Assembly (NCBI GenBank): GCA_964187785.1
Contig: OZ076409.1
Coordinates: forward strand, 3,040,001-3,104,000
Direction of reading: 5' to 3'
Source of the DNA: Amphiscolops sp. MND2022
Lineage: Eukaryota
DNA length: 64,000 nucleotides
The notes under the pieces are model-generated. The model worked only from the letters and a program-made list of their open reading frames with translations. It was not told where the DNA came from and made no database searches. This document shows, one piece after another, positions 1,297-55,649 of this stretch. Position 1 is the first letter of the stretch. Each line of letters opens with the position of its first letter. The position numbers were made by a program, and so were the translations under genes.

Positions 1297-1640
1297 TTTT
1301 TTATTGAATTTTGTGATGTTATAACTTTTTAATTTTAAGTATTAAGTTGTTGTATTTTGGAAATATTTTGAAGGGTATTTAAATATCTTTCATATAAGTA
1401 CTTATTTGTTGAAATCGGTCTATTAAAAGGAGGAGCAATTGAAGAATTTCATTGAAAATTTTTATGTCGTGATTGAAATTTTTATGTTATTTCATTTTAA
1501 AAATGTATTTTAACATCAAGTAAGTATTAAATTCATGCATAGCAGGCATATGCGTGTAGATTCAACTATTTTTGACATGTTGTTAAAAGATTAAGTGATA
1601 AGTGTTAATAACTTTAAAGCTATTATCCCATAATTACCAG

Positions 1641-2933: not shown

Positions 2934-3132
2934 TATTTAAACTTGCGTGTTTTTGTAGAGCTAAAATAATAATTATAACATTTGGTTACATTTTTTCTAA
3001 TACTAAGGAAAATTTTTGTTATGTCTTTTCTATCCATTAAATTGTTTGTTAAAATTAAAGTTTAAATTGTACTTACAATATGGGAATACTGGGTCAATGA
3101 TGGGTTGAACACATCAACAATCACAGTGGCAT

Positions 3133-17274: not shown

Positions 17275-18333
17275 CTTATCCAACCAAAGTGCTTGAATGA
17301 ACGACTTCAATTGGATGACATTTGGTGAGAGGAGACCCAACATATCAGAGATGCGGGTAACTTCCGAGAATTCTTGTCGTTTCGTTTGTGCGGCTTCATC
17401 GGTCGAATCCACGTTGAAGGTGAAGATGTCCTGTTTCGGTTTCCACACTATACAAAGTGTTTTGATGAAGTATTCTTTGGACTCGATGTGTCTGGTGTCG
17501 CCTGATTCTCGATAGGTATCGGAAAGGCGTTCAACGAGTGAAAGATCGCTCATCACTCGATGACCACTTACGTAGATGGAAACCAGCGTTAGCTAGATGT
17601 TTGATGAGGGCGTCTTGCACTACTTTAGCTTCTTTTTTGGAGGAGGTTGCTGTTAATAGATCGTCGGTGTACAAGTTGAGTTTGAGTTGCAGAGTATGGA
17701 GTTTTGGAGTTGTTACTATCAACACTTCAAATGAACTGCTTTTGAAAGAAATTGAGTTGAATTTTTTTGAGGAATCTCTGGCATCGCATACGAGTGACAA
17801 TCCGAGTTACACTCTATCAAACAGAACCTCAAAATTGGCTCCTCTCTGATCAAATTGAAGACGGGGAAACTTTGCAATCTGGGGAATATTGAAAAATCTA
17901 GTGAAAAACTACCTGCAAAAAATATCTGCAATTTCTCGACTGATAGAGTCGACTTTATAACAAAATAAAGATTTGTGCTAGTTTGGTGAACGTGAAAAAA
18001 CCTTAAAATCACAAAATTTTTTTGTAAGTCCTATAAAAAGGAAATCAATGAAAATAATTTTGAGGAAAATCCATCTCAGAAAGAGTTAAACCGTAACATT
18101 ATTCTTATCTTCTATCATGCTATTTTCCTTCAAAGATTTCCTTTGTACACATTTAGATACAGAGCTAAAGTTTGAAAAGGTGAAATATTCACAGTGCAAG
18201 CTATGAGTTCGCATGGTCTGGAGAAAAAACGTGTCATTGTAATAGTCGAGCACACTTTATTAACAAAGAGGGCCGACTGAAAACATGGACACAAAAATTG
18301 ATAGACATGAAACATGAAATGAGTTAAACTTAC

Positions 18334-28400: not shown

Positions 28401-29050
28401 ATTGGATAAGTTATTTGACTCAATTCTGGCTGGTATTGATTGACAAACAAACTTTAACAACCTAACGTCTGAACTATAATTAGTTCATCCCAGATTGTTG
28501 AAGTTAGGTTCCAATTATTATGTTGGTAGTGAAAAGATTGTATAGCTAATAGGTACGTTTAGGAGGAATAGAACAAGTGTAAATAATTTTTATTCCAGTA
28601 AATCAAAATTTTAAAACTTACAAAAACGTCCATGCGTTGAATACTATAAGTGAAAAATATCCTAACAGTGGGAGGCCATAAAAACTGTAAACGTTTATTT
28701 ATGGCCCCATTCAAAAAAACAAACATCAATGAATAAAACATCTGAGAACCGAGAATGAGACTGAACTGAGCTGTCACTCAAACTGCGTCAAACACGTTTT
28801 CAAACTGTCTCTGATTTATAAAAGAGAAGAACGGAATGTGAATATCTATTTTTTATATGGTTTCAAATTATCAGTCAAATCTGCCGGATGTGTTCTTCGA
28901 AACTGATGTTGATCTGATTGACAAGCGACAAATTTAAACTTAGAAAAATTCTCACAGCTTGTAACGGGAACCTCTGGTATAACGATTTTGCAACTTTGAC
29001 ATGTTCAGAAATTTTCTCAAAAATTCTAATTCGATGTGTGGAGTGATGAC

Positions 29051-29428
29051 TGTCATGCCAGCATGATGGAAATGTAATCTACTTAATATCTGTAATGTAA
29101 ATATTATGTCTTATGTACTTAGATATGGGCAATATGATGTCATATAATAAGGGCCATGGTTGTGAGCAACCCTACGTTACTTGTACTTTAATCCCTTCCC
29201 CTTTTGAGTGTGAGTTATATATATTTATTTAATACTGAGCGCTCTAGTTCCGGTGTCCGCATAAATGATCTTGCCAGAATCTAGCCTTGAAAGTGCTATA
29301 TTTCATAAATATTGGTTTGTCACGACAAGGGAGAGAAGTTTTCCGGTCAGACTGGACCGAGGAATATTGGAAGTAATGGAAAATATAACTTCTACTAACT
29401 CCCCGCCTCAGAGTATGTAGTTGTGACA
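29051..29428. repeat. LTR-like segment (TGTCA...TGACA)
   Basis: Perfect 5-bp inverted termini, TATA/AATAAA-like AT core; no TSD or PBS recognised. Confidence 0.4.
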
Positions 29429-29540
29429 AATTCTATTAAATTCATCACAAATTAATCGTCGAATTTGATGACGATTTTGATCTGATCAGAAATTTCACTT
29501 GGATCCATCAGCGGGTTCAACGGTGCTTTTAACCAAAGTT

Positions 29541-30325
29541 CATCGCAATCCCATCCTTAAAGTTTGCGAGTGAACAAAACATGGGACTTTAAACTGACTT
29601 TCATCAGAAATCCATCAGCGGATTTTATGGGACTTATTCTAGTAAAACTCATCTTTAATTCATCGTGATAATTTCATTTAGTAATTCCTGAATGTGCTTC
29701 TCATTTCTAAAGAACAGTAGTCCATCCTTTATTCATCGCGTTCACTAGTACAGAAGAGAAATGAGAAAGTACATCCTTAATTCATCCTAAAAAGAGTGAA
29801 AGTGCTGGTTATCTGATTTGTTTAGTAAACCCATCCTCAATTCATCTTGATTTCGTTTGTGCTGAAAAGTAACCATTTTAGTGGGTGAGTTCATCCTAAA
29901 ATCATCGCTAAATCGAACTGCTTTAGTATTCGGTGTTTTAACCGGTGAGTTCATCCCAAACTCATCGTCAATTTGTATTGCTCTGGTATTTGCTGTTTTA
30001 AGTGACAAGTTCATCCTAAACCCATCGCCAAAAATCTCCTGTATTAGAATTAGCGTTTATCGACTGAATTCATCCCTAATTCATCGTCATTTGAATCTGT
30101 GCTGGAAATTGACAAATTGTACATGGAGTTCATCCTTTTGTCATCGTCAGTTTGAATTGTGTTGATTTCCGAGCGAGAAAGACTACCATTCATCGCATTT
30201 TCATCCAGAGCTAAACTATACTTGGAAATCAGCAAATATTCTTACAAGTTCATCGCATTTCCATCTTCAAGTTTTAAATCATTGATTTTGGTGCTAGAAT
30301 CAGCGGAAAACATCGTTTTCCCATC
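29541..30325 (-). promoter_or_regulatory. Phased array of 14 CATC-N7-CATC motifs, ~60-bp period, upstream of gag
   Basis: First CATC at 29541, 29602, 29650, 29723, 29772, 29832, 29892, 29952, 30012, 30071, 30131, 30191, 30251, 30311; spacers diverged; regulatory role inferred. Confidence 0.7.
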
Positions 30326-30984
30326 CCAAATTGTGCTTTACCTTAAATTTGCTTGAAATTAGTGCGTTATTGAATAATTTGTGTCCATTTTAGTTACTAT
30401 AGAAACCATGATGTTATGTGCAGGCAATTGCGACACTGTAAATTGATGACTAAACACCATTAACACATGTAGATGTACCATGGTGCGTGGCCACTTTGCG
30501 GCAGTTCACAACACCGGTCACGTGACTTACCATTTTAACACCAGCTGGTAACAGCCAATGAGAGAAGGTTGGTAAGAGATTTAGCGTCTTACCAACCGAA
30601 AAGACACGTGAACTGCTGTAATTTGTACCGCCAATAAATATTACTCAGCCCGAATTGCGACAAGCTACCGACCAGTTGGATATTTTAACACGCAAAAGTC
30701 AGAAAACACATCTCTATTTCATCTTCAGAAATTGAGAAATTTAAACTGAGTAATTTCTTGGTACAACTACGACTGCGATGAACATTGGATGAACTTCTTC
30801 TGAATAACTTGCTAGTTTTCTTTTCCTTATATAACTGCTTACTTATTTGTACGACTACTTTCTAAAACATCTCAGTTCAAATTAGTGAATTTTGGGATCG
30901 AACATTCAGTTAAATCAGCAAGATACATCGAAAACACTTCTCAGATAATTCAGTCTTCACTCATAATTCTTTTCTCTCGAATAC

Positions 30985-32490
30985 ATGAATCCGGACCACG
31001 GCACTGAACTTAGAAGCGGTAGAGTTATACATTCCTCGTCAGGAACATCTTCTCCAATAGATCCAGACATGGCTCAATCGTCCGCCAATGACTCTGACAA
31101 TAACGAACCTTCAGATATCTCGTCCCAATTGTCTGAAATAAAAGAGAACTATGAGAAGAAGATAAATGAGTTACAAAGCGAATTTAGTCAACTGAAGAAC
31201 TTATTGATGGCAGTTATTAGTAAAAATGATGAAAATAACTTACCTTCAACATCGCAAAGTTCTTCAAAGCCGACCCACAGGGTAGGGCTCGACATGGTGA
31301 CAGGAGTTACAGAAACCCGCTCCACCCGCCCGACATCCAGCTTCACAAACTTCAGGCGATACCAGGAAGACGACTCGGACGAAGAAGGTGAATCAACTCC
31401 TAGAAGCAATGAGGAACGACTACTCAATGCAATCGAGACGATCCCCCAACGAATCAAAAGCACCACCACCAACACGAAATTACTACAGACACACGTCCCA
31501 AATTTCAGAGGCCAAAAAGACAAATTCGTGGAATTCGAGCACCTTCTCCTCAACCACCTTAGCCCGCTCGCCAACAAAATCACCGAAGAGAACAAACTCC
31601 ACTTCTTTCAAAGCCTTTTGAGAGATGATGCAATAGAGTACTGGCAATCCATCCAGATAACGCCACTAACAACACTGAAAGATGTGCTCGACCTCTTCAG
31701 GAAAGAATTCGCGAAAGAGGACCTTAAAGAAGTAGCTCGCTACAAATGGGATCAAGCCCGTTACGATCCCACCACAGAAACATTCAGCGACTTCCTCAAA
31801 AACTTGAAAAAGACTGCGAAACAAGCATTTGGGGAAGAAGCGGATAAAATCATCAAAATGTTCTTGTTCGGTAAACTCCCAGTCGAAATACAACAAGAAC
31901 TTACGATGGCCAATAAGGAGGAGAGCTCACCAGAAGAAATCAAGACATACTTGATGAGAAAGTACCAGTACCAACAGTACGTTGCGCCACCTACGACAAT
32001 TCAACCATTTAACGCGGTCACCTCCTCGGTCCCAACGACCAACACAACGATTAAACCAGCAACAACGACGACAACACAACCGACAGAACGAAAACGATTT
32101 GAGGGACAATGCTTCTACTGCGGAAAGACAGGTCACCGCAAAACAGAATGCCGCGCCCGACAACGTGACGAAGCAAACGGCATTAAGAAAGAAGATGCAA
32201 TTCCGATGAAGAAAGCAACCGACACAGACAAACCGAAGTACAATCCCAAGCTGGTTTGCCAGATTTGTGGATACACCGGCCACTCTGCAAGAGACTGCAG
32301 GCGACGCATTCCCAAGGAAAGCAGCTCTGCATATGGAAAGATTCCGTACACAACAAATTCACAGGACGACAACAAGGCTAGACGACAAGATTTAAAACGA
32401 CAGCAAAAGCCGATGAATCCAATGCAAGCAATTACTGAGGACGACGAACAACTAAGCTACTCTGATGAAGACATTAACCAGGGTTTTTGA
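30985..32490 (+). CDS. gag: Gag of element B (501 aa), two CCHC knuckles
   Basis: CFYCGKTGHRKTEC and CQICGYTGHSARDC; capsid-like region; intact ORF. Confidence 0.93.
   Translation: MNPDHGTELRSGRVIHSSSGTSSPIDPDMAQSSANDSDNNEPSDISSQLSEIKENYEKKINELQSEFSQLKNLLMAVISKNDENNLPSTSQSSSKPTHRVGLDMVTGVTETRSTRPTSSFTNFRRYQEDDSDEEGESTPRSNEERLLNAIETIPQRIKSTTTNTKLLQTHVPNFRGQKDKFVEFEHLLLNHLSPLANKITEENKLHFFQSLLRDDAIEYWQSIQITPLTTLKDVLDLFRKEFAKEDLKEVARYKWDQARYDPTTETFSDFLKNLKKTAKQAFGEEADKIIKMFLFGKLPVEIQQELTMANKEESSPEEIKTYLMRKYQYQQYVAPPTTIQPFNAVTSSVPTTNTTIKPATTTTTQPTERKRFEGQCFYCGKTGHRKTECRARQRDEANGIKKEDAIPMKKATDTDKPKYNPKLVCQICGYTGHSARDCRRRIPKESSSAYGKIPYTTNSQDDNKARRQDLKRQQKPMNPMQAITEDDEQLSYSDEDINQGF
32481..32487 (+). 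other. -1 ribosomal frameshift heptamer G GGU UUU at gag-pol junction
   Basis: CAG GGT TTT TGA; the pol ORF is in the -1 frame and overlaps here. Confidence 0.75.
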
Positions 32491-35400
32491 TTCAGCCACG
32501 ATTTCCGCCCGCTAGAAATACAACGCGCGACAAACGACTTTCGACTCAACCGACTACACACAACCGTCCAATGAAGAAATGGCAGCCTTCACTGGACAAA
32601 CGACCAAAAGCTGACGACGTCTATCAGCGAAGACTTTCCAACGATGAAAAAGCGATGGGAATTGCACGTCAAGGCAACGGCAGCCGCTTTTCTCCACTCG
32701 CTGAAATCAACGATGAACAAACGATGAACTGGCAACAAAACACCATGAGGCAGGTGGAAGATGCCAAAGAGATGGAAACCAACCATCTTGACGACGACTC
32801 GACTTCACACTCAACAATCGACAAACGGCTTAGTATTAAAAAACATGCAAAACAGAGTAGTTTTAACGTTTCAAAAGCTAAAAAACATGCAACTAAAACA
32901 GAAATTCACGTTCTCAGTCCCACTTTACACTTAAACAAGAAAGATAAAATGCTTTACGTCCCTCTTCAGTTTGACAAATATGAAAACAGCGCACTTTTAG
33001 ATACAGGCGCAATTCAAAGTGCAATGTCTGAAGCAGAATTGCGAAAAATAACAACGGCTCATCCAGAAGCCATCCTTCAAGAACTCCCCCCTCCGAATTT
33101 CAAAATTCAAATAGCAAACGGGAACTTAGTCCCAGTACGTAAGCAAGTCTTACTTAGATTTTACGTTGCTGGAAAAGTCTTTGAAGAAACGTTCCTAATC
33201 CTTCCAACAATGGGCACAATTTTAATTGGAATGTCATTCTTTGAAAAGTACTCAGTCAATTTAGACATAAAAAACCACCTTGTCCACTTCCCTAATCACA
33301 TGATGTCCATGCAAGTTAGACAGCAAAAGAACAACAGATTCAAAACTGGTTTAATTGATTTGTGTTCCAGTACCAGAACAGTGATCCCTCCTCTCCATCA
33401 AGTGATGATACAGGTCCACAGTGACGCGGACATCTCACTTACAACTGGTACAGTTGAGGGCTCACCTGGATTCATGCGAAAGACGTGTTTGCTTGTTTCT
33501 CCAGCTTTGGTTGACCTAGATGAGGGCAAGACGACAATCCAGGTCACCAACCCGAACAACCACACGTTCACACTTGATGCCAACACCACTCTGGCACACT
33601 TTCGCATACCGACACCACATCAGGCGGCAAACATCACACCCATGCCAGTCGAACACTTGAACCTGATCACCAAGTACCCAGATGAGGCGGAAGCAGTGGT
33701 CAACCAACTGTTCGTGAACCCTGAAATGAAGTCAACTAAGTGGTACCCAACTCCCGAGACGTGCAGTGAGCCAGACAAACTCAACGCAATTGAGCGACGA
33801 ATCTATGATGAGATTCTGGCACTACGAGAGCTCGAGAAGCTTGACCCGTCCCAATCCGATGAACAACGGATGAACTTCCTGAAGAACTTCAACTGGGACG
33901 ACTCGCTTCTTACTCCGTCTCAACGGTTACAGGTAGAGGAGTTGCTGGTAAAGTACAACTCCATTTTTGCTAGACATCGTTTTGATATTGGCGTGAACAC
34001 TGATTTTAAAGTTAAGCTAACACCCCAACATGAAGAACCTGTTTATTCACAAAGTCTCCCTACTCCGACAAATTTGAAGGACGATTTGCTCGTGGAGTTA
34101 GCTTTAATGCAAGAGTACGGGATCATAACTACTTTGCCTCATAGCAAATACTGATCTCCGATATTTGCTCAACGTAAACCAAATGGTAAATTGAGGATTT
34201 TAGTTGACTTGAGAAGAATAAACCACTTGATCAAAAACGATTACGGTGAACACAACCATCCCGTAACAACAATTGCTGACGCTGCCCAACACATGGCCGG
34301 GAAAAAGTATTTCTGTAAACTTGATTGTTCCCAGGCCTACCATTGCATTCCAATGGCCGATGAGCAGTCTGTCCAACTGTTATCGTTTAATTTTGGTTCT
34401 AGAACTTTTGCCTTTTTACGTCTAGCCCAAGGTCTTAACCGTTCTTTGTCAGCATTCACAAGTGTAGTCCGTGAGTATTTGGACCCCTTGGTCAAAGCGG
34501 ACCGATGTGCTCAATATGTTGATGACTTCGGAATTGCAGCACACACCCCTGACGAACTGATTAATAACCTTGAACTTGTTTTTCAGCAGCTGAACAAAGC
34601 CGGTCTTAAACTTAGCATGAGTAAATGTGAATTTGGACAAAAACAAAGTGAGTACTTGGGAAAAACCATTTCTAGCACCGATATTGCTCCCATTGAGAAA
34701 CGAGTAACTGACTATCTGACCAAATTGAAACCCCCCAACTCAGTGAAAGCATTGCAACGTTATCTTGGTTTTGTAAACTTTTACAGGTCTTATATTCCCC
34801 GACTAGCTGATAAAACTTGTTGTTTACAGGAATTGATCAAGAAGGACGTCCCTTTCAAACTGAATCAACAACATAAAGATGCTATTTTTGAAATCAATGA
34901 AAGTTTGTTAAAAGCAACAAAAGTGTCTCTGAAATTGCCATTACCTGATAAACAATTGGTAATCATGTGTGACGCCAGCGAACACGCTGCCGGCTATGTT
35001 TTGTTAATTGAGGATTATGCTGACCCGTCAGTCAAACAAACATACGCCCCTGTTGCATTTGGCTCTAAGAAATTTCAGGGCGGCCAGATGTCTCTAACAA
35101 TGTATGCCAAAGAGTTTTTAGCTACGCACTTTGCCTTCGATGAATTTGGCCACATTCTGTGGGGTGCGAAAAAACCCATCATTGTTATGACTGACAATAA
35201 GGCCTTGACTAGATTTTTTCAGGCGAAGCATATCCCGCCTTCACTTTGGAATTTTTGCGATCAAACCCTTCAGTTCAATTTTTTATTAGCAAGGAGTTGA
35301 AAATCCCGCAGCGGACTACTTATCTCGGCTTGAGATTAGACCTGAAGACCGTGTACATTTAAAATTGACTGATACTATTCCAATTCACAGGATCGAGATC

Positions 35401-37572
35401 GACATCGCCTCCCGTACACCAAAACAGGAGGAAGACGAGCCTGATTACTTTCCCACGAGCGAACCACTCAGATGCAAACGCCAGAAGGATGTCAAAGAGA
35501 TGAAATTGGCAACTGGCACTCACGTGGCTCATGACGATGGGAAAGGGATGAAGTTCACCAACTGTGAGAGAACAGCGGCCTCAGATGACTTCGCGACTGA
35601 CAACCATCTGACGTACCGCCTCACAGACGTGGACGAGCCAATTCAACTCTCGCAATTCATCCGTAAAGTATCATTATCACACCCGGTAATGAGTCAGGTT
35701 AGCCCCGCTGAGGGGATCGATCTAATTCAGGTCCAGAAAAATAACTGGGTTATTCAAAAAATGATTAGATTTTTAGAAGGTACTGAAATTTTGCAACACC
35801 CAGTTAATATGCAAGATCAGTTTTTTCAAAAGTTGCACAAAAATCGAAAACGCCTACAAGTTGTAAACGGTGTCTTGTACAGACAGTTTTTTGATCACAC
35901 GGGACTGGAGTCTCACAAGCAGTTAGTTGTTCCTGAAGACTGTATTTTGAAAATAATTAGGACTCTACATAACAGCCCGGTACAAGGACACCCTGGTTTA
36001 AAGAAAATGTTCTACGAACTTCGTAAAAGATATTACTCTCCTAACTTAGCCTGTAAAGTTCAAAAAGTCCTTGACGGATGTGAAAACTGCATGAAATCTA
36101 AAAGTGTAAAAGAAACGCAACTACGTCCACCGTTACAAAAAATCTACGACCCGTGCGACGGACCAGAAGACCTGTTGGAAATAGACATCGTTGGTCCACT
36201 CCCGGCGTCGAACGGTTTTACACACATTCTGACGGCTGTTGACGTTTTTTCACGCTACCTGTTCGCCGTTCCGCTGAAGAGACCTGATACACATTCCGTA
36301 GTCAGAGGATTACTGTCGATCTTCACGAAACACGCGTATGTGCCCAAGCACATTCTGACGGACAAGGGCACGGCGTTCACGGCTGAACTTCTGTCTGAAA
36401 TCGCGAAAGCGGCTGATATTCACATCTCCCATGCCACGATAAAGCACGCACAGACAATAGGCATGGTGGAGAGAACGCACGCGAAACTGAAAAAGATCCT
36501 TAAAATTAGTGTAAACGCAGACCGACCACAATGGGACCGCTATGTCGACATAGCAATCATGGCCCATAACACAACGTATCATGATTCACTGAAATGTTCA
36601 CCAACTGAAATTTTCCACGGAAGAACACCATACAACCCACTAGATCTGCAATTCCGAAACGCAAACAAACCGGCTGAAACAAAGTGCAAGGACGTGAACG
36701 AAATTCTAGACAAAATGAACTTCATCTTCAGAGACAATCTAGATAACATCATTTCCGCCTATCATAAGTACAAAACGTACTATGATAGAAAAGCACGAGC
36801 ACAGCCACTGAAGGTGAATGAATTTGTGTTCCTACTAGATCCTAAGTACGACTCTCAGAGAAGCAAAGAAGAGTTTAAAACGTTCCATTTGAAAGGACCG
36901 TACAAGGTGATCAAAGTGCTATCCGATAGCAACTACATCATCCGCAAAGTAGGCACACACCAAACTCAGTGCGTACACAGAATGCGACTGAGGTTGTTCA
37001 AACCGGAATTTCCGATTGATGACATCAACGTGTCCAAACATCTCTACCCAGACACTGAAAGGGTTGAAGACACGGACATTTTCGACTCGAATATTCCGAC
37101 AACCGACGAAGTAGATCAGAATGAGAATGACAATCTAGATCAAAACTTAGTCGAAGAAGAGCCTTCAGAAGAAATAATTCCACAGGTACAAGAACGACAC
37201 AGTCCACAAGTAATTCCTCCAGAAATAACCACGAGAATAGATTATCAGCAAGTAGAAACTGACCACAACAACTTTAGACCACCTACAGTTAGATTTGGAA
37301 CGCAAGAGGAAATTATTCTACCGCCCCCCCGCGATGAAAGTAGGATAAGAGTACCTCTGAGAGACGAACAACACGAAAATCAGTCACAACAGACAAACAC
37401 GCAAAGTGAAGATGAGGAAAGGATGAGTTCTAGACCTTCTAGAAACAATCAAAGTAGGTACAGGTTACGCGAAAACCCTACACCGAAAAAATATCCTGAC
37501 TTCCTTATTCATGAGATTACATCAGCCAGAAACTCTCTGAGAAAGACCAACAAAGTAAACGTAACGAGTTAG
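32487..37572 (+). pseudogene. pol: Pol of element B (protease, RT, RNase H, integrase), disrupted
   Basis: LDTGA, YVDD, CDAS, HHCC/DDE integrase, GPY; in-frame TGA at 34152-34154 and a small deletion/frameshift near 35290. Confidence 0.93.
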
Positions 37573-37600
37573 CCAAGAAAAACAACATTTCAAAACACAC

Positions 37601-39447
37601 GATGTGTTAAAGATGAACAATTCACAAAAACGAGTCAATTACATGCAATTTCAATTTAAAATGAACATGAAGATGTAAAATGGATGAAAAGTTACTAAAA
37701 ATCACATGAAAAACGCATAAAAACAAAACACGATGTAAAACGGATGAAAAACGACCAAAAAACCAGAAAAAACAACACACAAAAATTTGAGATGAAAAAA
37801 GGATGAAATCACATGAAAATTTAGCTCAGACACACGAGAGATGAAAAAGTGATGAACTCAGTCAAAAATTCGACCAATCAACATGCAATATTTACTAGCG
37901 ATGCATTTGAGATGGAAAATACCATCAGAATGCGAACGCACTCACGTTCATGCTATCATAAGACTCTAGCTCGGCTAGAGGATGAAATAGCGATGAACTC
38001 GATCCAATTATTCATAAATTACATGAAATCAATTAACGAGATGAATTTGTGATGGACACTACCATCAAATCGTGACCGAATTTATCGTTAACCTGACACA
38101 ATACTCTAGCTTCGCTGGAGGATGTCAAAACGATGAATTTAGTCTAAATGGAAGTTCGAAAATATTAAATGACTTACCAAAAACTCCTTGCGGTGGGAAA
38201 CACCATCAACATAACATCACAATAAATCAGCTAACTCTCAAACAACATGTAACTCCACGAAACGATAAAAAACAACCGACTTTATTTCGAATCATGCAAA
38301 CAGAATTATGCGACACAAAAAAGAAATGATCAATACATGTAAAGTTCAAAGACCTGCCAAATCAATGACGTCACGAAAGAAATTGAAAATTCCAAACTAC
38401 ATGCAATACAAATGAGTAACACACGGAAATATACATGAACCGTTTAAAAACGAACAAGATAATATATGCAATTCACACCAAAGCCATCCAAACCTAGACG
38501 AATAAAAATGAAACAAACAATCGAAAATACATGAAGCCTAATAACTTACATGCAAAATATAAGAACTGACGAAACACCTACAAAACGAATAAAGGAGTGA
38601 GCACCCCCCAGCAAACATCAGTTCATAACAAGCAAAACACCCCTATCGAGAAGCCAAAAACATTCCTTCGTGCTGGCTGGCATTTCTCTGAAAAGAGTGC
38701 TGGTTAGTTGAGGCGGGGAGCTCACAACCATATTCGGATGAAGCTTGCTGCGTTGGTTATCCAGCGGCTAGTGGATTCTCAGTTAGTTTTGTAGGGGCTT
38801 TGAGACGACAAAGCCCTGTCCAAATTGACGAACAAAATCAAGAAATAACCAACATGCAAATAATGGGGTAACCCATTAAAAGATTACATTATGAAAATAC
38901 CACGAACACCAAAACGACATGTAAAATTAAAAAGAGAATGAAAATCATACTGAGACAGTATAAAATGAGTAAAACATGCACATACCATATGAAAAGTACA
39001 TTCCCGAAAACGTCAGAGTCACATAGCCACGAAAACGCACAAAATTACAAAATTGCAAAATTACGATGAAAAGAAGATGAACTATACCGCAAAACGAGCA
39101 AAAAACTTGCCAAGTCAAACTTGCGATGCAAAAACGATGAATTACACCAAAAAACTAGCAAAAATGCAAAAATTAAAAGGCAAGATGAAAAAACGATGAA
39201 CTATGTAGAAAAATCACATGTAACAAACATGCAATGAATCGCATATAACAAACGATGTAAAAAAGATGAGAAATCAGTTTTCGCAACGTCGCTCGGCCGA
39301 CCGAGGAAAACGTGATGAAAATGAGATGAGAAATCAAAAATGAAACGCTACCGAATCACCTACACTCCCACGAGATGTAATAACGATGATTACCGCAAAA
39401 AGACTAGCTGAGAATTGTGACAACGCAAAAACGATGTGAAAACGATG
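37601..39447 (+). promoter_or_regulatory. Two phased GATG-N7-GATG arrays (9 + 7 copies) between pol and the accessory gene
   Basis: 37601, 37672, 37732, 37791, 37840, 37900, 37981, 38040, 38121; 39065, 39125, 39184, 39254, 39314, 39374, 39433. Confidence 0.7.
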
Positions 39448-39754
39448 CTAATTGAAATTTGGAACTCTGAATGACGTGACCTAACAGCAGAAACTAATGA
39501 TCCGCAAACCTAACCTGCCTACGACCTCAAAAACTAACTAGTATCTCAAGAGAAAAACAATTCGGGTGCCACATCATTTAACTTGTAAATACAAGCTACC
39601 GAACTTTCCGACGTAGCCTTTTAATTTTCCCCCTCCCAGTATTCTCATTTCTCTTGGCAACACATTATGATAACAAAATACTAACTATAATATAAAATCA
39701 AGCAAAGCAATACAAAAGTTTCAAACAACGGAGTTTACAGTTGGATCTCAAACA

Positions 39755-42700
39755 TTAATTGCCGATCTCCGGACTGGCAGCTCGTTCCCCACTAAGCGTG
39801 TATCCTAGCTTCGCATACAATTGGAGACGATAATCTTCTCCGGCCACAATTCCGATGTCGTCCCACAACATACCCTCGTCCAGCTCCGCCAAATTGACCA
39901 ATCGTCGATGTGACTCAGTCACTTCCTCTAACAAACGGCCGCTCACACTGTCATAACTTTGGATATGATTAGCAGACAAATAGGCCAAAATCACAGCACA
40001 AACACAACTCGCGACATCGCTACTTAACTGCCCAAATCCATCGCAGCAAAGACTGCTTCTGCTCTGAACTCCTCCATCTAGGCATAAAACACTGCGAAGC
40101 AGATTCTGAGCGCCACCACTAGAACAATGGCGAAGAAGATCGATGACAGAACAACCCTCTGTACGTCCTGCTAGTCCCGGGTCACGTCGGATATTGACAA
40201 GGAAATCCAGAAAGCCACGTTCCATCCGACCCTGCTCCGCACGGGTGATCCGACCCAGATCCACAAGCACATCAGTGAAAATCCTGATCTCGTCTAATAG
40301 GACGTCCTCTGCAACAAAACTCAGACAGGGCATACTGAAAACACTGCGCACAAACGACAGATCGTCTCGCACACCTGGCAGATTGATAACAGTCTTCACA
40401 ACGGTTAGAATGAAAACCGGAACAAGTGACAAATCCTCTTCATATAGAGCGGCATTCGAGCCTTGATCGTCCACACAACGAAATCCGTCCAGCAACACCT
40501 GATGTTTCACTTCTGAGATTTCATAGCTTTCCACATTCAGAAAGAGCCATCCACGAATGTCCAATTCCGATGGTAGCTTTTCTTCCTCTACTAGCATCAT
40601 CATCAGTGACTTCACAAAGGCAGCACTCTCAATTGCCCAGTAGCACGCGCGCAACGTCGAAGACCCAAAACTCTTCTCGTAGGAGCTGATCACTGAAAAA
40701 CACGAATCACAATTATCACAAGAAACAACCAGGTTTAACATTACACCCACAACCGTATAGCTTCCAACTCGATCTCAACAAAAAAACCAAAACCCCCCGT
40801 AACTTACAGAACTAAAGTATTACTAACAAGCACAGTACACAAGACCAAGAACACGGAGTCTAATCGGAATGCCGACCTCAGCACGTAGTGTCAAGTCTAA
40901 GGCATCCAAAGGCCCTTCACCACTAGCGAAGCGTAGCAAGCATAAGATGTCAGACCAGTTCGTCCGTAACTCCTCGCACACATCGGCCAGGGTCCAAATG
41001 TACACCTCGCCGGTAACAATCGCCTAAAATGTAAATAATACCATCCCAATCAATTCGATAAAATCAAACAATTACATCACGCCTACACACCTGCACAACA
41101 CTAAAATTATTACATCAACCAATTCTCTAATATACTACGTACTTGCAGAAGTTGAGGGCATCCTAGCAACAGAGGATCTTTCACGTATCCTTTGAGACGT
41201 TTCTGTAAATGGTTCAGTACCACGTGAATGTCTGTACCCCCCAGCACTGATCCGGCCACATCCACAATTGCCCGACTGACATCTGACAGACCCAGAGACT
41301 TCACGTCCAATGATCCGACTCCTGTGCTGCTTCGAAAGAGCCCACCCAGCTGCGGCAACTCATCGCAACACAGTCCAAGTGGGACTGGCTCACCGAGCAT
41401 ACAGCACCACATGTTCACTAGCCATGTGATTACCCTGCTTTCCCAGTCTCGAGCCACACTGAAGCTATACACACAGTAGTGCTTGACCCCGTCTAACACA
41501 CACACTGTAACAGTCCCTGTCACGCGCCCTCCCACAACTGACAAATGGAAGCTACTGTAAGTGCTATCGGTCCAGACAGTGATCAGTCGCCGCATCACGT
41601 ACGGCCACAGCCCTAATACGATCACGCTCTAAAACAAAAACGCTGTGAATAAAACATAAAAATAGCATCCACCCTACCCCCCACCCACTACTAAAACTAG
41701 AAGAACACATAATGGCCAAAAGTATGACTAAAAAACATACGAGTAGACGCTTACCATGACATCGTTCAATCCGCATTGCGCCCCAAACAAAACCGCATGT
41801 TGGGGATCGGAAGCCACCAACACTTCCCACAGGTTCGTGACACTGGCAAACTGACAATCACGATATAGGGCGTCCACAACAAAGCAAATAAACAGACGAA
41901 CAGTTCGCTCTGGCCAGTCTTCCCCTTCCTCTTCGTCGCCCCACACAGGTCGTCCAGCACCCTCCAACTCGAAAACTTCCACCACATTAAGTGATGGACA
42001 GGTCTCTATGAAAGGCACGGACACCCCCTCCAGGTTCACACGGCATTCTGCACTTTCGTCACTTGTCATGAGAGTTCCATCACGTCGCCGCAACGGTAGC
42101 CCTCGGTGCAGCCGTACCACACAATCCAGCCGATGATGGCCTAGGCCTCGGCAGTGCTCCATAAAGGTGGTAATCCCTCGGCTGCCCACCTTAACATCTC
42201 TCTTGCACATTAGACATCGCACATACGACATGCGCGACTCGTGATTGCGTGAATATCCTAGCGCCAGCCCGCAGTATGGATGATCAAACCATCCAGACTT
42301 GATCACTTTCTTTCCTGATAATCACAACCACACAATATAGCAAAAGTAATACCATTACAAACCATCATAGACAACGACTAAAATCATCTGTTACACATCA
42401 GAAAAATCGAAAAATGCAAAAGTCACAAGTAAAAACCAAAAAAGTTCACCCGGAGTGATGAAAACATGATGTAAAATAATATTTTCATTGGAAATATAAG
42501 CGAAAAACGAAGAAAAAACGAAAAGATGAAAAAGAGATGTGTTTGCACACCACCAGAATGAAAAATGGAAACTTTAAAGAATGAAAAACTCGAACGATGG
42601 AAAAGAGATGAATAGAACGACTTTAAACCAAAATTGAGATATTTTAGAGCGAAAACAACTTAACGATGAAAACGAGATGTAAACTGAAAAGAAAACACTG

Positions 42701-44422
42701 AAAAATAGCGAAAACCGAAACGAGGAATTTTAAAGATGTAAAAGAGATGGAAAGTTCTAAAAAAGGACCAGAGAGCGAAAAGACTATTGTTCAAAACTTT
42801 TGACGATGAGAAAGTGATGGAAAATGGAAAACTGCAGAAAACCATATAGTCAAAACAGAAAAACAATGGAAAATGGATAGAAAAGAAGAAAAACGTGAAA
42901 AATGCTAGTGAAAGTAAAAACGAAGAAGGAAATGAATGAAAATCTACTGATCAGATACTTCACCGGTTTAAAGCTGTTTAGTTAACCTGGCAGACGAGAT
43001 GCAATGGGCTCGTCATCGGAGTCCAACAGGCTGGGTCCCATTGGAGACGTCTCGATGTCAGCAGTAGCCACATTGGACGCAACACTCCCTGGAGCAGACA
43101 CGCCAGACGGAGGACTACGAAATGAGAAATCGTCAGGGATTTCCAGTAGGGTCTCGGTGGTGCCAGCTGAGGGAACTTCGGACGGGGCAACGTCAACGTC
43201 AACTGCCCCAGGAACATCAGCAATCGGTGGAGGAGGAGAAGACGGTGGAGTAATCGCTGGAGGATCATAGCAGGTAGCAGCAACTCCAGTTTCAGTGACA
43301 GCTTGGACAGTTTGATCTGCAACGCCCACACAGGCATTGATGGCCATGTCTCTACAATCGACAACAGCATTTACAGCAGCGTCGAGAGTAATACGAGCAG
43401 GAGGAGGACTAGCAACGGTGAAAGATCGCCTCAACACTGGCGACAGTACAGACACTGGCGCCTGCCTGACAGGAGAACTCACTCCAGTTAGCGACAGTTC
43501 ATTGAGGAACGAGGAGAGGTTGAGTTGAGGAGGCCCTCCTTGTGTGCTGACGTCAACGCTGCCATCACCGAAGTCACTGGTCCCGATCCCGATAGAATAG
43601 GTGATGGGACGCGGTCTCGGGGCATGGATAGGCGTTGGACCTGAAAGAAGGAAACAGAAATCAGACGACGACGAATGAAGAAGAAAGTGCGCGTACGCCG
43701 CGCGAAGAAAGAAGACAGGAGAAGAATTCATCTCAAATCCATCCTCAAAATGGAATTCGCAACGAATCAGCCATGAAAACTGTGGATATTCATGATACAT
43801 CCTAAATTCATCCTAAAAATGATTTTTATGAGGTAACCGACCGCGAAGGGCACTACATGCAGATGAGATGTTTACATCGGAATTACATCGGAGTGTCCGG
43901 ACGATGCCTTAGTACAGGAGGAAAGTAAAATGGAGTCAACTCACTAAATTGCTGGATGCTATCTCGTAGCATGTCCCGCATGTGGCGATCATACCACCCG
44001 AAGGTGATGCTACCGAGGGAGGCATACCAGGGATAGTGATCTAAACAGTAACGGAAAGAGTCAGCGTCTGAATGGATCGGGGATGAGAAAAGAAGAGATT
44101 GTAGACTGAGATGATGATCTGAAAGGAAAGAACTTACACTGCGGAAGATACGGGACGTTAGGGGCCTGTTCAATTTGCTGCTCAGGTTGATACTGAGGTG
44201 CGGGAGATGCTGCATGGATTGGAGCCTCTTGAGGCGGAACTGTCTGCAATGTAGTCAGCTCGGAAATGATGCCGACAGAGTGAACGGAGTCCGCTAAAAC
44301 CAAGACACGCCTTCAGTTCCTAATTATTCCCTAACCCGTTTATGAAGAAGAGAAAAAATAGTGCACTTACTTTCTGTGGCCTCGGTCTCCGGTAACGAAT
44401 AGACGGAGTGGATATCCGACAT
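39755..44422 (-). CDS. Antisense 7-exon accessory gene of element B, predicted 1013 aa (S/T/P-rich N-terminus, CxxC..H..H Zn finger, hAT-like helical body)
   Basis: Exons 44422-44371, 44293-44138, 43640-42987, 42314-41755, 41628-41143, 41023-40828, 40692-39755; all GT-AG with compatible phases, 3042 nt with no internal stop; the exon-3 donor (CAG/GTTAAC) is weak. Confidence 0.78.
42457..42819 (+). promoter_or_regulatory. Six GATG-N7-GATG motifs, ~70-bp period, in intron 3 of the accessory gene
   Basis: 42457, 42525, 42596, 42665, 42735, 42805. Confidence 0.7.
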
Positions 44423-45190
44423 CGTGAAGAATTGCAAAACAATCTGAAAAGGAACGGAAGAGAGTGAAGAAAGGAACGAAATCGAAGAATCTGAGGACAA
44501 GAATTTGATCAGTAATTAAATGGCCTGATCAACCATGATTGCGAGATTACAAATTCACGAAAAACTTTAAAGAGCGCGAATGCTGCTTGAGCGACAGGAC
44601 AAACCAAATACTTGAAATTCAGAAGATGAAAAATCGATGAAAACTCTCCGATTTCAATGACTCTCTACACTTTTCTTCCCAGTTTCAACCAACTTAGCAA
44701 TTTTCTCTGAAAATGAATCGCCCCCCAGAATTTGACTACAAAAGCTTCAAGTATTTGATTTTGATGACAGTTGCCAGTCTCAGATCAATGCCGACGAAGT
44801 TGAGCGGAAACGCGCAAAGGAAATCGTGGCGATTTTCAAAACCGACTTGACGGAAGATGATTCACGGATGAGAATGTTTGTTAACAACCGGTTGAGTTTC
44901 CTCCAGTTCTGAAAATTCAGTTTTCCGCCAATCAGAATTTAGCAGCAGTTGCTATGGCGACGATTTCATCTCTTTCTCATCGCTGAGAAAATCAGACAGC
45001 GGAAGCGACAGTGACGGTTGCTATGACAACAAAATCATCTCTTTCCTATCGCGGAGATTGACAGAGCGGCGGCGCCAGCCGTCTGTTATGTCAACATCGA
45101 TGTCTCGCTGAGTAAACAATTCATCGTTCATTCATCCCGGGAAACTTCGGCAGACAAGAAATGGCGCCGATTTACTGCCAAATTGTCAAC

Positions 45191-45390
45191 NNNNNNNNNN
45201 NNNNNNNNNNNNNNNNNNNNNNNNNNNNNNNNNNNNNNNNNNNNNNNNNNNNNNNNNNNNNNNNNNNNNNNNNNNNNNNNNNNNNNNNNNNNNNNNNNNN
45301 NNNNNNNNNNNNNNNNNNNNNNNNNNNNNNNNNNNNNNNNNNNNNNNNNNNNNNNNNNNNNNNNNNNNNNNNNNNNNNNNNNNNNNNNNN
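45191..45390. other. Assembly gap (200 N)
   Basis: N run. Confidence 1.
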
Positions 45391-51400: not shown

Positions 51401-51553
51401 GGATGACGTTGCTAATTTCTTTTGGATGGTTACGTTCACACAACGCGATTTTCTTTCCTTGATTTTCCTTTTCTTTTTAGATTGTCTTGAAGATTGTCCC
51501 GCTATTCTTGGTTTTGTGGAGATGGGAGACGAAAAATTGTTTCCCCCTACAGT
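45404..51553. repeat. ~3.07-kb tandem duplication, units 45404-48474 and 48481-51553
   Basis: Colinear near-identical copies with scattered SNPs; 6-nt filler tcctcc at the junction. Confidence 0.93.
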
Positions 51554-54500
51554 CGCTGCCACTGGATTTGTCAGTGGGAATGAGACCATTTTTGGGTACA
51601 GTGACGACGATGTGATTCCGTCTGGTTCTGATATTGGACACTGTCCCATGTTTGCAAAATCTTTCTGACTTCCAAGGGTGTTTAGACTTTGTTTTTGGTG
51701 ATCAGCCTTTGTAGTCTTACCCGAAATCCTGACGCGTCTGACCAGATCTTGATTTTCAGTAACTCAACCTGTCGCTTGTTCAACTAACCTCGAAGTCAAT
51801 GCGGGGGAGTCCCAGACGGCCACTGTGGAATTGTTTAAATCTTCCACTACTGCCTTGCCTTCTATCTCTGAAATTTTGCCAGCAGTCCGGTCTACTTCCG
51901 TTAATGAGGCATTAATCTCCACTTTGGTTGTTCCTGAGCTTGAAACTTCGTATCTTGTTATACCTAGCAGTTCTGCCGTATTTCCTTCGTCGGCTTCTGT
52001 GATATCTGGATCTCGGGCTCTTACGAGGGGTGTTGATGTCAGCCCTGATCTGTCTACCGATAGTGAGTCTCAAGGAGGTGAGACTGATCCCCCCGCCGAG
52101 AAAAAAATCAGGCTAGTTGCTGAAAGCGTTGTTGTCAAATATCGCTTGAGGGCGAGGTGTAGCTGATAAAATTTGTCTTGAACTTGCTTTATTAGGGTTG
52201 AAAGGGTATTCCGATGCGATGCCGTCTGTGAATTTTGCTACGTCCCCCATGCGCGCTAAGAAAACTGTTCCTCCTCCTCCGAGCCCTCCACCTTTGACGC
52301 GAGCACCTGGTGGTTGGAATAGTCAAAATGAGGACCAGACTGCTTCCGTTGGTGATATGCTGGTCACTTCTGGTGACCTGATGCGATTGAGTCAGCCTTA
52401 TTGGATGAGGTGAGGAATCGGACTTCACAGACTATCCGCACTGGTATGTTGCCATTTTATTGCTTATTGATGGGCCTCTGGCTTGTGCTTGTTGTTTGTT
52501 TGTTGAGTTGGTCCCTATTGGTTTGTGTTCGGTTGCGAGTTCCCCTTTCTCTCTCTCTCTCTTTTGTTTTTTTTGTTAATGGCATATCTGTATGTTGCAG
52601 GATTCCGTGAACTCAATGAAAAGGTTGGGAGCCAGAAATTGCCCAAGACATACAGCAGTCGCAAGTTGTTGCATCGTCGCATATTGGACCTCCATCCTGC
52701 CTACAAGAGTTTCGTGAGTGGTGCAAAGAACGGACAGGCGACGTACTTCCATTGCCGAGTGTGTCGTCGTGATGTGGCCATGAAAACACAAGGCTCTGGC
52801 GAGTTTAGGCGCCATTTTGAATGCGACAAACATTGGATCAAGGACGTAATTTATATGGTGCATATGGGCTTGTCAGTCCTTAATCGTTTGATGGAGCCTA
52901 TGGATTTGACAATGATCCAGATGGCTCAATATCGAGCTAAACCTTTCGAAAACCTTGGTGAAGAGGACCCTTTCCCTGATGACTTTGTGCCAAAACATTC
53001 CCGAGTGGATTTTAAAGTTCCGTTCATGACGTTCGTGGGCTATCTGGGAGAACTTCTTCGCAATGGTGGAGACTTTACTTTCTTGCGACGGCTTTGGGGG
53101 CATTTTCGGTCATCTCTGGGCGATTGGAAGCCTGAATTTGCTTTGAATTGGAGCCGTTCGGAAACCGTGGTAAGATATTTCCCTTCTGTTTCCGCCTGTC
53201 TTGCGTTGTAATTTTGTTTTCCTTGGTTAATCTACTGATAATACGTGTGCTGTATATCGTGGTGGCAATGGCGTCTATGTTTTTAGTCAATTCTGTGCCA
53301 AGCTCTGGCCCCTCGTGTGTTGTGGTTGATGGTCAAGCATATTACATTCTTCAGAGGGTACAGTTTGCAGTTCGAGAAGTCATCGTTTAAGGAGTAATGC
53401 TATGTGCTTTGTTGGGAGGAGAACCATCTAAAAAAGGTGTGTATTGGAAAAGACTCTTCGGAATAGCCCGTGCCCAATGCGGAATTGATGCATTTATCGC
53501 GCGTTGCATATAGCCTTTCCACCAAACAGCTGCCAGTTTCTATTTCTGGTGCGATTCCGTCTTTGGTTCGTGTTTTGGGAAATGTTCGTGAAGAAGGTCG
53601 CCGTTTCGCTGTGTATCAAGCCTTCAGCGAAGAAGTTTTCATACAATGCTTCCGATAGGCTCTACCAGGATGTCTTTGGTTTGGTGAAAGCGGTGACGAT
53701 TGTCGACTATGTTGTGCAGCGTCTAAAGAGTGCCTTGTACGAGGAGTGGACGGAAGATGAACCAGTGTTGCGTAAGTGTGTTCGGCAAGGTTTCGTCAAT
53801 TTTGGTGATTATCGAGCTCTGTTGACTGATTTGATCGATCTGTGGCCATCGATTCGACCTTACATCCGTTGCACTGGAAATCCCGAATCAAAAGAGAAAG
53901 CCGATAGTGTTAGTATGGTGTGCTTGATTGTTGTAAGTTGGGGTTGACTTAGGTTGTAAGTAGGTTTGGTTTGTTTCTAGATGCGAGGTCCAGACTGGCG
54001 ATTAGATTAATTGCCGACGATATTATTACATATCAAATCGAGTTGTTGCGTTTTGTGCTCGATACCTGTAAGTATGGTGTTACGACTGATTGATTGTGTT
54101 ATGAATCTTTGATTGTGTCTGCGATTCTATCCGTTGTTCCGACTGTTGTTCGTTATCTGGATTTCGGTTTTGTGTTCTGATGGTGGATTTGTAATTTCTC
54201 TGTTTTAGTCTTTATCAACTTCGAGAAGCTACAACAGTGTCGGGCGGATTACGGATTTCACGGGTACGGTGAGCTATGTCACTTCAACTACTGTCTGTTG
54301 ATGAAGACTCGGGACATTTCTAGTTTGCCTTCTATTCATAAATGGGAGGAGTATATGGATCCCGAAAAACTTGTCGAATTCCCTATTGCTCCGATTGAGT
54401 CGTTTCTTGAGAATTGTGCTTTTGGACGGTCACTGTCTGCTGGTAAGACGACTGGGGTCTTGGAATTTCGTGGGCGCTGCAGAGAGTTCCTTGATTGTTT

Positions 54501-55480
54501 GGTGTTCGTCATCTTGAGTATTTCTGCAGTTTCATCGAGAGTGACACGGAGCCTTAGCTGTGTTGGTCCCGAGATTTTGCTCGAAGGCGATGATCATGTA
54601 GTGTTTCGTCTTTTTGCCGATTTGACTGATGTGCTGGGGGCATGTGGGCTATTGGTTGCTGATGAGGCAAAAGCAGCAGTTGAGCAGTTTAACAGCTACA
54701 TCGTTGTTAAACGGAGACAGCACGATCGCTCCAAAACCACTGCTAGCGACATTCCTAATGTGGTGCACTATTTGCTACGTGATTTTAGTTTCCAGGCCTG
54801 TCATCATGTTTGCCGTGTATTGAAGCTATGCTGTTTGATTATGGGGAGTCCTTGCGGGGTTCATCCGCAAGTGCTCTTTGATTTGGGATGTGGTAAAATC
54901 AGCAAAGACGTGTTTCAAGACTGTCTCCGACTCGTCCAAAGTTATGTGTTGAATCCTGGGTATTGTCCTCAGTTCTTTTTTACAGAGTCAACAGGGTGCA
55001 GTTCGTGATGCTATTGCCAGTGCTGGTATATTTTTCGTTACTCCAGGTTATGATGTTTGGAAAGATGTTTGTGATCCCGGAGTGGCTTCGTTTGTCTCGC
55101 CGAGTAAGAAGGCTTATGATGCATATTTGTTGGAGCGCCGGAAATCTTATGAGCATCATTATGTGGATTGCAATAAAGCAAACCGTCTTTCTCGCGTTAA
55201 TGCCGTAGTTCCTGCTGTCGATACGGATAGTACAAGCACCTTATGTTCAAAGAGTTCCAGGTGCGATGCCCAATGGTCGGATTCTGGGAAAAAGACTGCG
55301 TCGTCTTCCAACAAGTCAGCCAGGGCTGGTACTGGTAATCAAAAGGGGAAGGAGAAGAAGCCTCCAAAAATTGTTGATCCGGACGTCTTCCATCGGATAA
55401 AGTTAAGGTTTGCACTTTTAAATAACTCCATTCGATGTTTTGAGTGGTGCTTATGTGTTCGTATCTTTGTTGAATTTTGA
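51480..55480 (+). pseudogene. Antisense spliced accessory gene of element C, homolog of the B gene, degenerate
   Basis: Exons 52601-53169, 53287-~53908, 53981-54067, 54209-~55480; CRVCRRDV...H.....H finger; stop at 53395 and frameshifts; 5' exons uncertain. Confidence 0.72.
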
Positions 55481-55649
55481 GGTTCTGTTTTTATAATGGC
55501 ACCGTTGTTAGAGGTAGTTTTGTAGTATAGTAGCAGAAATTAAACGTTACCACTCCGGTTCTGTTTGGTTTGTTGATTGTTTTCTTCTAGTCTTGAGTAG
55601 AACGTAAGTGTTCCGTAGTAACTGAGTCGAGCATTCTGAGGTCAAGGTT

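Follow-up and report, generated by a model that had tools for sequence, protein, structure and literature searches.

Open reading frames (ORFs) lying antisense to gag-pol have been described in several retrotransposons with long terminal repeats (LTRs). In the plant Ty3/Gypsy elements Grande, RIRE2, Retand and PvRetro13, such frames (aORF-3R) are located between pol and the 3' LTR; PMC7264820, in the part available to us, states that their function is unknown, that a regulatory role has been suggested, and that an internal promoter has been reported for gene23 of maize Grande. In Silene Retand, 97% of clusters encode Transposase_28 (PF04195), or TRP28, at this position (PMC11963269, accessible sections), and Boty of Botrytis is cited as a non-plant example of an antisense ORF (PMC7264820, same portion). 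HBZ of HTLV-1 is expressed independently of the 5' LTR, as stated in the accessible text of PMC9822710, and the LTR elements of bdelloid rotifers (Juno, Vesta and others) carry an extra conserved ORF3 after pol (PMC5408684, likewise in part). Here we describe an antisense gene in a stretch of 64,000 nucleotides (nt) from Amphiscolops sp. MND2022 (NCBI GenBank assembly GCA_964187785.1, contig OZ076409.1, positions 3,040,001 to 3,104,000 of the forward strand), which we call the window. As the genome carries Wnt genes (PF00110, E 3e-45), the host is a metazoan. The gene has seven predicted exons and lies opposite gag-pol of a Ty3/Gypsy LTR retrotransposon, element B. Comparison of its copies leads us to give a probability of roughly 0.88 to its being a real, spliced, element-borne gene under selection.

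We rebuilt the gene from the sequence of the window. Its seven exons, all on the minus strand and running from 44422 to 39755, sum to 3042 nt, corresponding to 1013 codons followed by TAA with zero internal stops. The six introns between them (77, 497, 672, 126, 119 and 135 nt) are all of the GT-AG type and have phases 1, 1, 1, 0, 0 and 1. A preliminary description of this locus had proposed seven minus-strand exons encoding about 1013 amino acids without a stop, as well as six GT-AG introns with these phases, and both proposals were reproduced exactly. It had also described the gene as antisense to gag-pol and converging on it, in agreement with the Pfam-supported gag-pol that we found on the plus strand (30967 to 37572); 2.2 kb separates the two stops. 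The parts of the gene and the regions adjoining them are listed here.

44423..45190, minus strand: upstream region, candidate 5' untranslated region (UTR) and promoter, truncated by an assembly gap; intact copies have about 406 bp more ahead of the 3' LTR
44371..44422, minus strand: coding part of exon 1, 52 nt from the ATG
44138..44293, minus strand: exon 2, 156 nt; open in the expected frame in the copies dE and dF introduced below, where it has 159 nt
42987..43640, minus strand: exon 3, 654 nt, a variable region rich in Pro, Ser, Ala and Val with conserved ends
42315..42986, minus strand: intron 3, 672 nt, rich in T on the strand of the gene
41755..42314, minus strand: exon 4, 560 nt, where a zinc-finger-like module and an acidic linker precede the first part of the core
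41143..41628, minus strand: exon 5, 486 nt, the Trp/Cys-rich core
40828..41023, minus strand: exon 6, 196 nt
39755..40692, minus strand: exon 7, 938 nt including the stop, encoding a C-terminal domain modelled as all-helical

The gene is contained in the interval between pol and the 3' LTR, which measures 7.6 kb in an element whose full length is about 18.7 kb (18,734 bp in the copy cA). The remaining parts of element B in the window are as follows.

29051..31294, plus strand: 5' LTR, 2,244 bp, which begins TGTCA and finishes GACA, its 3' edge set by the primer-binding site
31295..31306, plus strand: primer-binding-site-like sequence TGGTGACAGGAG, which begins TGG, abuts the 5' LTR and is also present in the copies cA, dE and dF
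30967..32490 (stop to stop; the first in-frame ATG after the LTR is at 31294), plus strand: gag frame with two CCHC zinc knuckles (Pfam zf-CCHC, E 1.8e-7)
32478..37572, plus strand: pol, encoding protease, reverse transcriptase (RT), RNase H and integrase (Pfam RVT_1, RT_RNaseH, Integrase_H2C2, rve and Integrase_p58_C)
37573..39754, no strand assigned: spacer from the pol stop to the antisense stop, presumably containing the antisense 3' UTR
45191..45390, no strand assigned: assembly gap of 200 N, which takes out the last internal 406 bp or so and the 3' LTR of the window copy

The order of Pfam matches on the plus strand (zf-CCHC, gag-asp_proteas, RVT_1, RT_RNaseH, Integrase_H2C2, rve, Integrase_p58_C) is that of Ty3/Gypsy elements, the gag-asp_proteas match in pol having scored under its Pfam cut-off. 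The 507-codon gag frame is open in the window copy and in the copies cA, cC and cD. The pol frame of the window copy is broken by an in-frame TGA (34152 to 34154) and by a change of frame near 35290 to 35300; the antisense gene is intact there. In cA, cC and cD pol reads through both of these lesions, yet is broken at other places. In all, seven other copies were inspected, and pol is interrupted in each of them at some different place. No Pfam-bearing ORF was found in the spacer, which is 88–93% identical to that of the subfamily described below up to about 38908 and diverged past that position, and the first minus-strand AATAAA past the antisense stop is located at 38286 to 38281.

Self-BLAST of the window returned no LTR pair. 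Because the window copy is without its 3' LTR, the place of the gene inside the element was established from other genomic copies. We retrieved about 20 kb around four copies at 99% identity, and all four were colinear with window positions 29051 to 45190, their 3' LTRs resuming about 404–406 bp later and aligning to window positions 29048 to 30455 and beyond. The same order of 5' LTR, gag-pol, antisense gene and 3' LTR was seen in both of two further copies at 77%, so that the antisense gene was found in six of six complete copies fetched; the distance from its ATG to the 3' LTR in intact copies is about 1,174 bp. In cA, dE and dF, the LTR pairs measure 2,184–2,245 bp and are 98.6–99.7% identical (2,245 bp and 99.7% in cA), a short purine run, GGGGAG, stands just before the 3' LTR, and the LTR ends TGTCA...GACA are flanked by 5-bp target duplications (TCCAT, TTTGC and GAGAG) in all three. 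Element B is thus a genuine LTR retrotransposon that moved recently, and the antisense gene is one of its internal parts. The earlier placement of the gene inside element B, and its linkage to the same pol between LTRs, therefore held for the copies that run from LTR to LTR (4/4 at 99% and 2/2 at 77%), while the window copy itself lacks its 3' end at the gap at 45191, where the join may be a scaffolding artefact. Past the gap lies a 3.07-kb tandem duplication (45404 to 48474 and 48481 to 51553; 97.8% identical) that is unrelated to element B.

We searched the 1.07 Gb genome (1929 contigs) with the query 39755 to 42314 and scored 40 of 283 first-look candidates. Among these there were at least 22 other full-length copies at 97–99% identity, at least 11 at about 70% and one at 74%; the linkage with pol across the whole family is known from the sampled loci rather than from a survey. 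The gene is hence not single-copy. Nor is it bounded by terminal inverted repeats (TIRs), since the inverted repeats found in the window were just 15–27-nt arms with 70–94% complementarity, none of which bracket the gene. A TIR-bounded DNA transposon nested in element B was rejected on these grounds.

The two copies at 77%, dE and dF, belong to a subfamily that we call d, and they bear on the gene model. Relative to the window, their LTRs are 88–90% and their gag-pol 92–93% identical, and their antisense region is only 77% identical. In an eight-sequence alignment, exons 4 to 7 of dE and dF matched those of the window exactly in length (560, 486, 196 and 938 nt), with no gaps, and all AG and GT dinucleotides were retained; the length of exon 6 was likewise unchanged in a third copy, dG. 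Introns 4 to 6, by comparison, were 50–59% identical between the window and dE/dF, with 8–23 gap positions. When spliced at the aligned sites, exons 4 to 7 of dE and dF could be read through 725 codons without a stop, up to the stop codon that is used in the window. Between the window and these two copies, pN over exons 4 to 7 was 0.15 and pS 0.72 (a saturated value), for a dN/dS of about 0.07 and an amino acid identity of 74–75%; the dN/dS between subfamilies was thus 0.07 for the antisense frame versus 0.09–0.32 for pieces of gag-pol. Over the same exons, dE and dF differ from each other with a dN/dS of 0.26, and exon 3 of the window differs from that of dF with a dN/dS of 0.26 at 58% amino acid identity. 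The whole seven-exon frame is open throughout in dF and is one base off in exon 3 of dE. An additional in-frame piece in intron 2 (44118 or 44040 to 43945), which would give a protein of 1045 or 1071 amino acids, was set aside in favor of the seven-exon model because in dE and dF this piece is interrupted by stops in each of the three frames.

Flexible choice among GT-AG pairs can stitch long frames from noise, and the splicing of this gene is predicted from sequence comparison, so we considered whether the model might have been put together by chance from open frames, or be a dead relic without coding function. The same splice sites, exon lengths and frame recurred in independent, diverged copies whose introns have decayed, and we judged these comparative data to refute chance; this explanation is accordingly left with a negligible probability. 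Another explanation would accept the transcript and make the frame incidental: antisense RNA, rather than protein, would be what matters, forming double-stranded RNA with the genomic RNA that feeds small-RNA silencing or self-regulation. Regulatory antisense transcripts of retroelements are discussed in the accessible part of PMC7264820, and the antisense exons span 3 kb of the genomic RNA. An incidental frame, however, would not remain open over 725 codons with a pS of 0.72 against a pN of 0.15, and the dN/dS of 0.07 disfavors it; neither would it hold exact exon lengths while introns decay, nor retain residues and intron positions at the 22–40% protein identity described below. We regard this explanation as very improbable.

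We next turn from subfamily d to more distant relatives. An exon-7 HMMER search of 1.84 billion representative proteins returned 66 matches at 23–65% identity, all of them unnamed and exon-sized (at most 367 amino acids) with the exception of one spurious match, the 983-amino-acid P0059, which is a tetratricopeptide repeat (TPR) protein and was discarded. Word-index searches returned 41 exon-sized ORFs for exon 4 and 22 for exon 5; neither brought up a longer protein, and with exon 4 none of several exons was found. The database ORFs homologous to exons 4, 5 and 7 are all exon-sized, and their similarity to the gene stops at the splice sites, exactly so at the donors. Two of them, P0031 and P0002, represent two types of exon 7 with 1,575 and 1,153 first-look candidates, respectively, in the Amphiscolops genome. 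In the exon-7 genome search, 29 of the 42 rows spanning the whole query were free of stops. As P0031 and P0002 are 100% identical to loci of this genome, the 'metagenome' protein collection in which such ORFs occur contains exon-sized ORFs from transposons of this animal, predicted as though they were genes of bacteria.

We compared six P0031-type loci with the window. Identities were 21–25% for exon 7, 29–35% for exon 5, 32–37% for exon 6 and 40–43% for the C-terminal part of exon 4. The order of the exons was retained, and 33 of 34 extrapolated exon ends fell on AG or GT, although the six loci amount to about three subfamilies and are not six independent tests. Exon 6 of this distant family had AG and GT at its two ends in five of five loci. 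In four of the six, the other strand carried the extreme C-terminus of pol about 1.45 kb past the antisense stop.

The window itself contains a further relative.

52507..55480, plus strand: remote homologue of the antisense gene in a second Gypsy element, detected with exon-4 and exon-7 profiles and tblastn

This second element (52507 to 60386) has its pol on the minus strand (about 56019 to 58838 and beyond), with RT and integrase 40–48% identical to those of element B. The exon-4 profile matched an ORF at 52507 to 53208 (E 1.2e-4) and the exon-7 profile an ORF at 54181 to 55005 (E 1.5e-8), and gene and pol are again laid out tail to tail; Pfam found nothing in the antisense ORFs of this element. 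Judged from these layouts, the tail-to-tail link of the gene with Gypsy pol is old and general in this genome. By the aligned copies and loci, purifying selection acts on the protein and on the intron positions over element lineages whose identity ranges from 99% to about 22%.

The depth of this conservation bears on whether the gene might be a host gene or fragment that was recently transduced by one element family, with or without benefit to the host, and that the element does not require. LTR elements are known to transduce genes (PMC7264820, accessible part), and the protein is without a transposon-typical Pfam domain. Against this, at least four element lineages that diverged deeply carry the gene, always tail to tail with pol, and selection is seen between element lineages and not just within one. 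There are also over a thousand first-look candidates in the genome, and no longer multi-exon database protein was found with exon 4, in a search that was not aimed at an unlinked, single-copy host paralogue. Recent transduction is, in our estimate, even less credible than an incidental frame. The antisense gene has instead been kept under selection by many lineages, and so it is probably needed by the element.

Divergence between the window family and subfamily d is distributed as a mosaic. The backbone of the element is young, with a pS of 0.07–0.13 in pol and identities of 88–90% in the LTRs, 86–89% in introns 1 to 3 and 93–98% in the upstream region. The gag gene is patchy (pS 0.25 in dE and 0.42 in dF), so recombination between lineages is common. 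From exon 4 (after its first 100 nt or so) through exon 7, introns included, the subfamilies are deeply diverged. Coding sequence is far older than this backbone: exon 1 differs from dE/dF at 11 of 52 nt, all of them synonymous, its 17 residues being identical; intron 3 is 87–88% identical between subfamilies, whereas the adjoining exon 3 is only 65% identical and has a pS of 0.61. Mismatches at third positions set in with the ATG and with the exon-3 acceptor; they end a few bases before the exon-1 donor and about 55 bases before the exon-3 donor.

Such exon-confined tracts could possibly have arisen by selection for co-adapted coding parts or by copying from spliced antisense mRNA. In the latter scheme, the spliced antisense mRNA would have the polarity of minus-strand DNA, and RT could copy the co-packaged mRNA of another lineage during plus-strand synthesis; a conversion tract that keeps the introns would have to begin and end inside an exon. 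Exchange templated by mRNA would explain the divergence of exons 1 and 3 amid young introns and backbone. We consider it improbable that exons were in fact exchanged between element lineages in this way; if they were, retroelements with spliced antisense genes would have a recombination route that is new and theirs alone.

The predicted protein can be divided into a variable N-terminal part and a conserved remainder. Its N-terminal third (about 290 residues from exons 1 to 3) is rich in Pro, Ser, Ala and Val, evolves quickly and is probably disordered. Exon 4 encodes a W-F-x-H-x-Y-C-G ... C-x2-C ... H-C-R-G-x2-H-H module followed by an acidic linker; across 17 sequences the Cys and His positions of the module vary little or not at all. 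We take this Cys/His pattern to be that of a putative zinc finger, which no family match confirmed. The motifs DWE, WCC and D-x-H-x-V-x-N of exon 5 are invariant across families. The AlphaFold model of exon 7 is all helix with a pLDDT of 73 (80–95 over residues 10–200), and the domain closes with a conserved tail, W-[DE]-[DE]-[IV]-G ... Y-R ... L-G ... S-P-E-I.

Searches for known families returned little. Pfam gave nothing at E of 0.01 or below for six antisense ORF pieces, and at E of 10 or below only four weak, unrelated rows (Sgf11, LeuA_dimer, LTP_2 and Tryp_alpha_amyl) for the five main exons. Sequence profile searches of the PDB gave one row at E 1.3 for the exon-5 alignment and none for the exon-7 alignment. 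For the exon-7 model, Foldseek gave a best E of 0.5 in the PDB and 0.29 among the viral models of BFVD, and VIA-align found no Z of 5 or above among 48,161 chains; these blanks are no proof of a new fold. A language-model feature search with exon 7 scored 0.81 at best, to bacterial DUF6179 clusters, and gave no lead.

With exon 5, the same kind of feature search was more suggestive, and it raised an alternative view of the protein's origin, namely that it derives from a DDE transposase (RNase-H-like, of the MULE/Mutator or hAT kind) that an ancestral Gypsy element captured long ago and that has since lost its catalytic activity or taken on another use. Exon 5 matched DDE_Tnp_ISL3, MULE, Mutator and Transposase_mut clusters at 0.81–0.86, and ten of the ten best family-bearing matches share family or clan with the best of them; these scores all stand below 0.9, the level that the search tool itself treats as no more than a lead. 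The exon-5 model starts with a helix, three strands and a helix, at the low confidence of pLDDT 45, and the longest structural alignment of exon 7 was to residues 367–609 of the Hermes transposase (Z 4.6, 160 aligned, rmsd 5.3), a row that is tied with unrelated helical proteins, no chain having reached Z 5. A Cys/His finger at the N-terminus with about 660 amino acids behind it presumably matches the general size of such transposases. The residues themselves spoke against a DDE triad: of the two acidic residues of exon 5 that have a DDE-like spacing in the window copy, D19 is replaced by N, K or I in close homologues and D89 by V in the distant family, neither being conserved, and the invariant acidic residues D61, E63 and D133 are without a DDE arrangement, a third residue being not placeable. 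No transposase was matched in Pfam even at E 10 or in the PDB by sequence profile, and the gene has no terminal inverted repeats of its own around it. We consider a transposase origin unlikely, although it concerns origin and biochemistry and would be compatible with the gene serving as an accessory gene of the element.

For a spliced gene to be carried by a retroelement, its introns have to persist through retrotransposition, and the orientation of this gene offers a possible way. The mRNA of the gene would be made on the minus strand of the inserted copy, its promoter lying either in the 3' LTR or in the ~1.2 kb that separates this LTR from the ATG, and the host spliceosome would splice this antisense transcript. 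The preliminary description had called for a promoter near 44450 to 45190; a promoter upstream of 44422 is a reasonable requirement, and intact copies show the candidate interval to be longer than the window reveals. On the packaged plus-strand genomic RNA, the introns would read CT...AC and be unspliceable, so that they would be copied into each new insertion. The persistence of the introns fits their lying opposite the strand of the genomic RNA; the argument for their survival rests on the known replication cycle of LTR elements.

As to the role of the product, we favor a trans-acting, nucleic-acid-binding accessory factor that would promote expression or replication of the element, a proposal that we would put at clearly less than even odds. 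It is suggested by the zinc finger, by the strong selection in a selfish element and by a repeated 17-nt motif, and it likens the antisense protein to retroviral accessory or antisense proteins. The motif, CGATGRRAAAGWGATGR, had 14 matches with at most two mismatches, versus 0.22 expected, all of them within element B and spanning 39064 to 45051. Five copies lie in intron 3 on the plus strand, 69–71 nt apart (densest at 42524 to 42820), four in the spacer past the antisense stop (39064 to 39329), and two inverted copies upstream of the ATG at 44966 and 45035, 69 nt apart. The upstream region, 93–98% identical between subfamilies overall, is 98–100% identical in the 90 nt before the ATG. This array may represent regulatory or binding sites, and we treat it as a candidate only.

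Several observations weigh against the interpretation of the locus as a functional, element-borne gene, or limit it. Twelve of 19 further young copies had one or two stops, a one-base deletion or frameshift, or an altered splice site in exons 4 to 7, whereas in the other seven these exons and their splice sites were intact; such defects are expected of insertions decaying after transposition, and many copies cannot make the protein. The donors GTTAAC (after exon 3) and GTTAGT (after exon 6) are weak, and the positions of the transcription start, of the polyadenylation site and of the splice junctions are predictions. The database homologues all lack names and have a single source, ENA; P0031 and P0002 are 100% identical to loci of the window's own genome, so that nothing among them places the gene outside this species. 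Protein function is without support from any family, sequence or fold match, the structure model of exon 5 is poor, and binding of the antisense protein to the repeated motif is pure conjecture.

Two further features of the window lie outside these elements. A tandem duplication of about 1.78 kb (13738 to 15525 and 15519 to 17281) is 97.9% identical. Minus-strand ORFs at 643 to 5814 (893, 431 and 232 amino acids), the largest of which matches Retrotrans_gag (E 5.4e-7), have no RT match, and none is similar to the pol of element B; they are probably part of a different retroelement.

If the gene is as modelled, element B would illustrate that a retroelement is able to maintain a complex, spliceosome-dependent gene over the long term. 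As comparative proof that selection acts on an accessory gene of a transposon, the comparisons between its subfamilies are unusually clean. The many intact young copies would make it a tractable system for studying roles in the regulation of transcription, in RNA handling or in counter-silencing. For annotation, the family calls for caution, as its exon-sized ORFs are borne by transposons and are not host genes. In the open-access literature that we searched, we found no LTR retrotransposon of an animal described as carrying an antisense gene with several exons.

HBZ is a small bZIP protein whose gene has one intron and a promoter in the 3' LTR. Like HBZ, the gene of element B is protein-coding, opposite to gag-pol, near the 3' LTR and spliced (by prediction, in our case); unlike it, this gene has six introns, no bZIP appeared in the Pfam scans, and the element is without env. 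The rotifer elements with ORF3 are similar in being animal LTR elements with an additional conserved ORF after pol. Their ORF3s (env, DEDDy, GDSL and others) have recognizable domains, whereas the protein of element B has none, and in the accessible text of PMC5408684 a term search found 'antisense' only for small RNAs and 'intron' not at all. The brtn gene of Boty-like Gypsy elements of Botrytis and Sclerotinia shares the antisense placement between pol and the 3' LTR. Closest are the plant Ty3/Gypsy elements with aORF-3R, which, as far as the available portions of their descriptions go, resemble element B in the position between pol and the 3' LTR, the antisense orientation, the long interval, the presence of the gene in most copies of a family and its conservation at a level comparable with the element's own genes. 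Element B differs from them in its animal host and in having seven exons, six conserved introns and a protein of about 1,013 amino acids; the term 'intron' is absent from the accessible text of PMC7264820 and PMC11963269, and, in a further difference from TRP28 of Retand, PF04195 was not among the Pfam rows at E of 10 or below for the five main exons. The layout is thus known from plants and fungi, and the animal host, the number of exons and the protein family are new.

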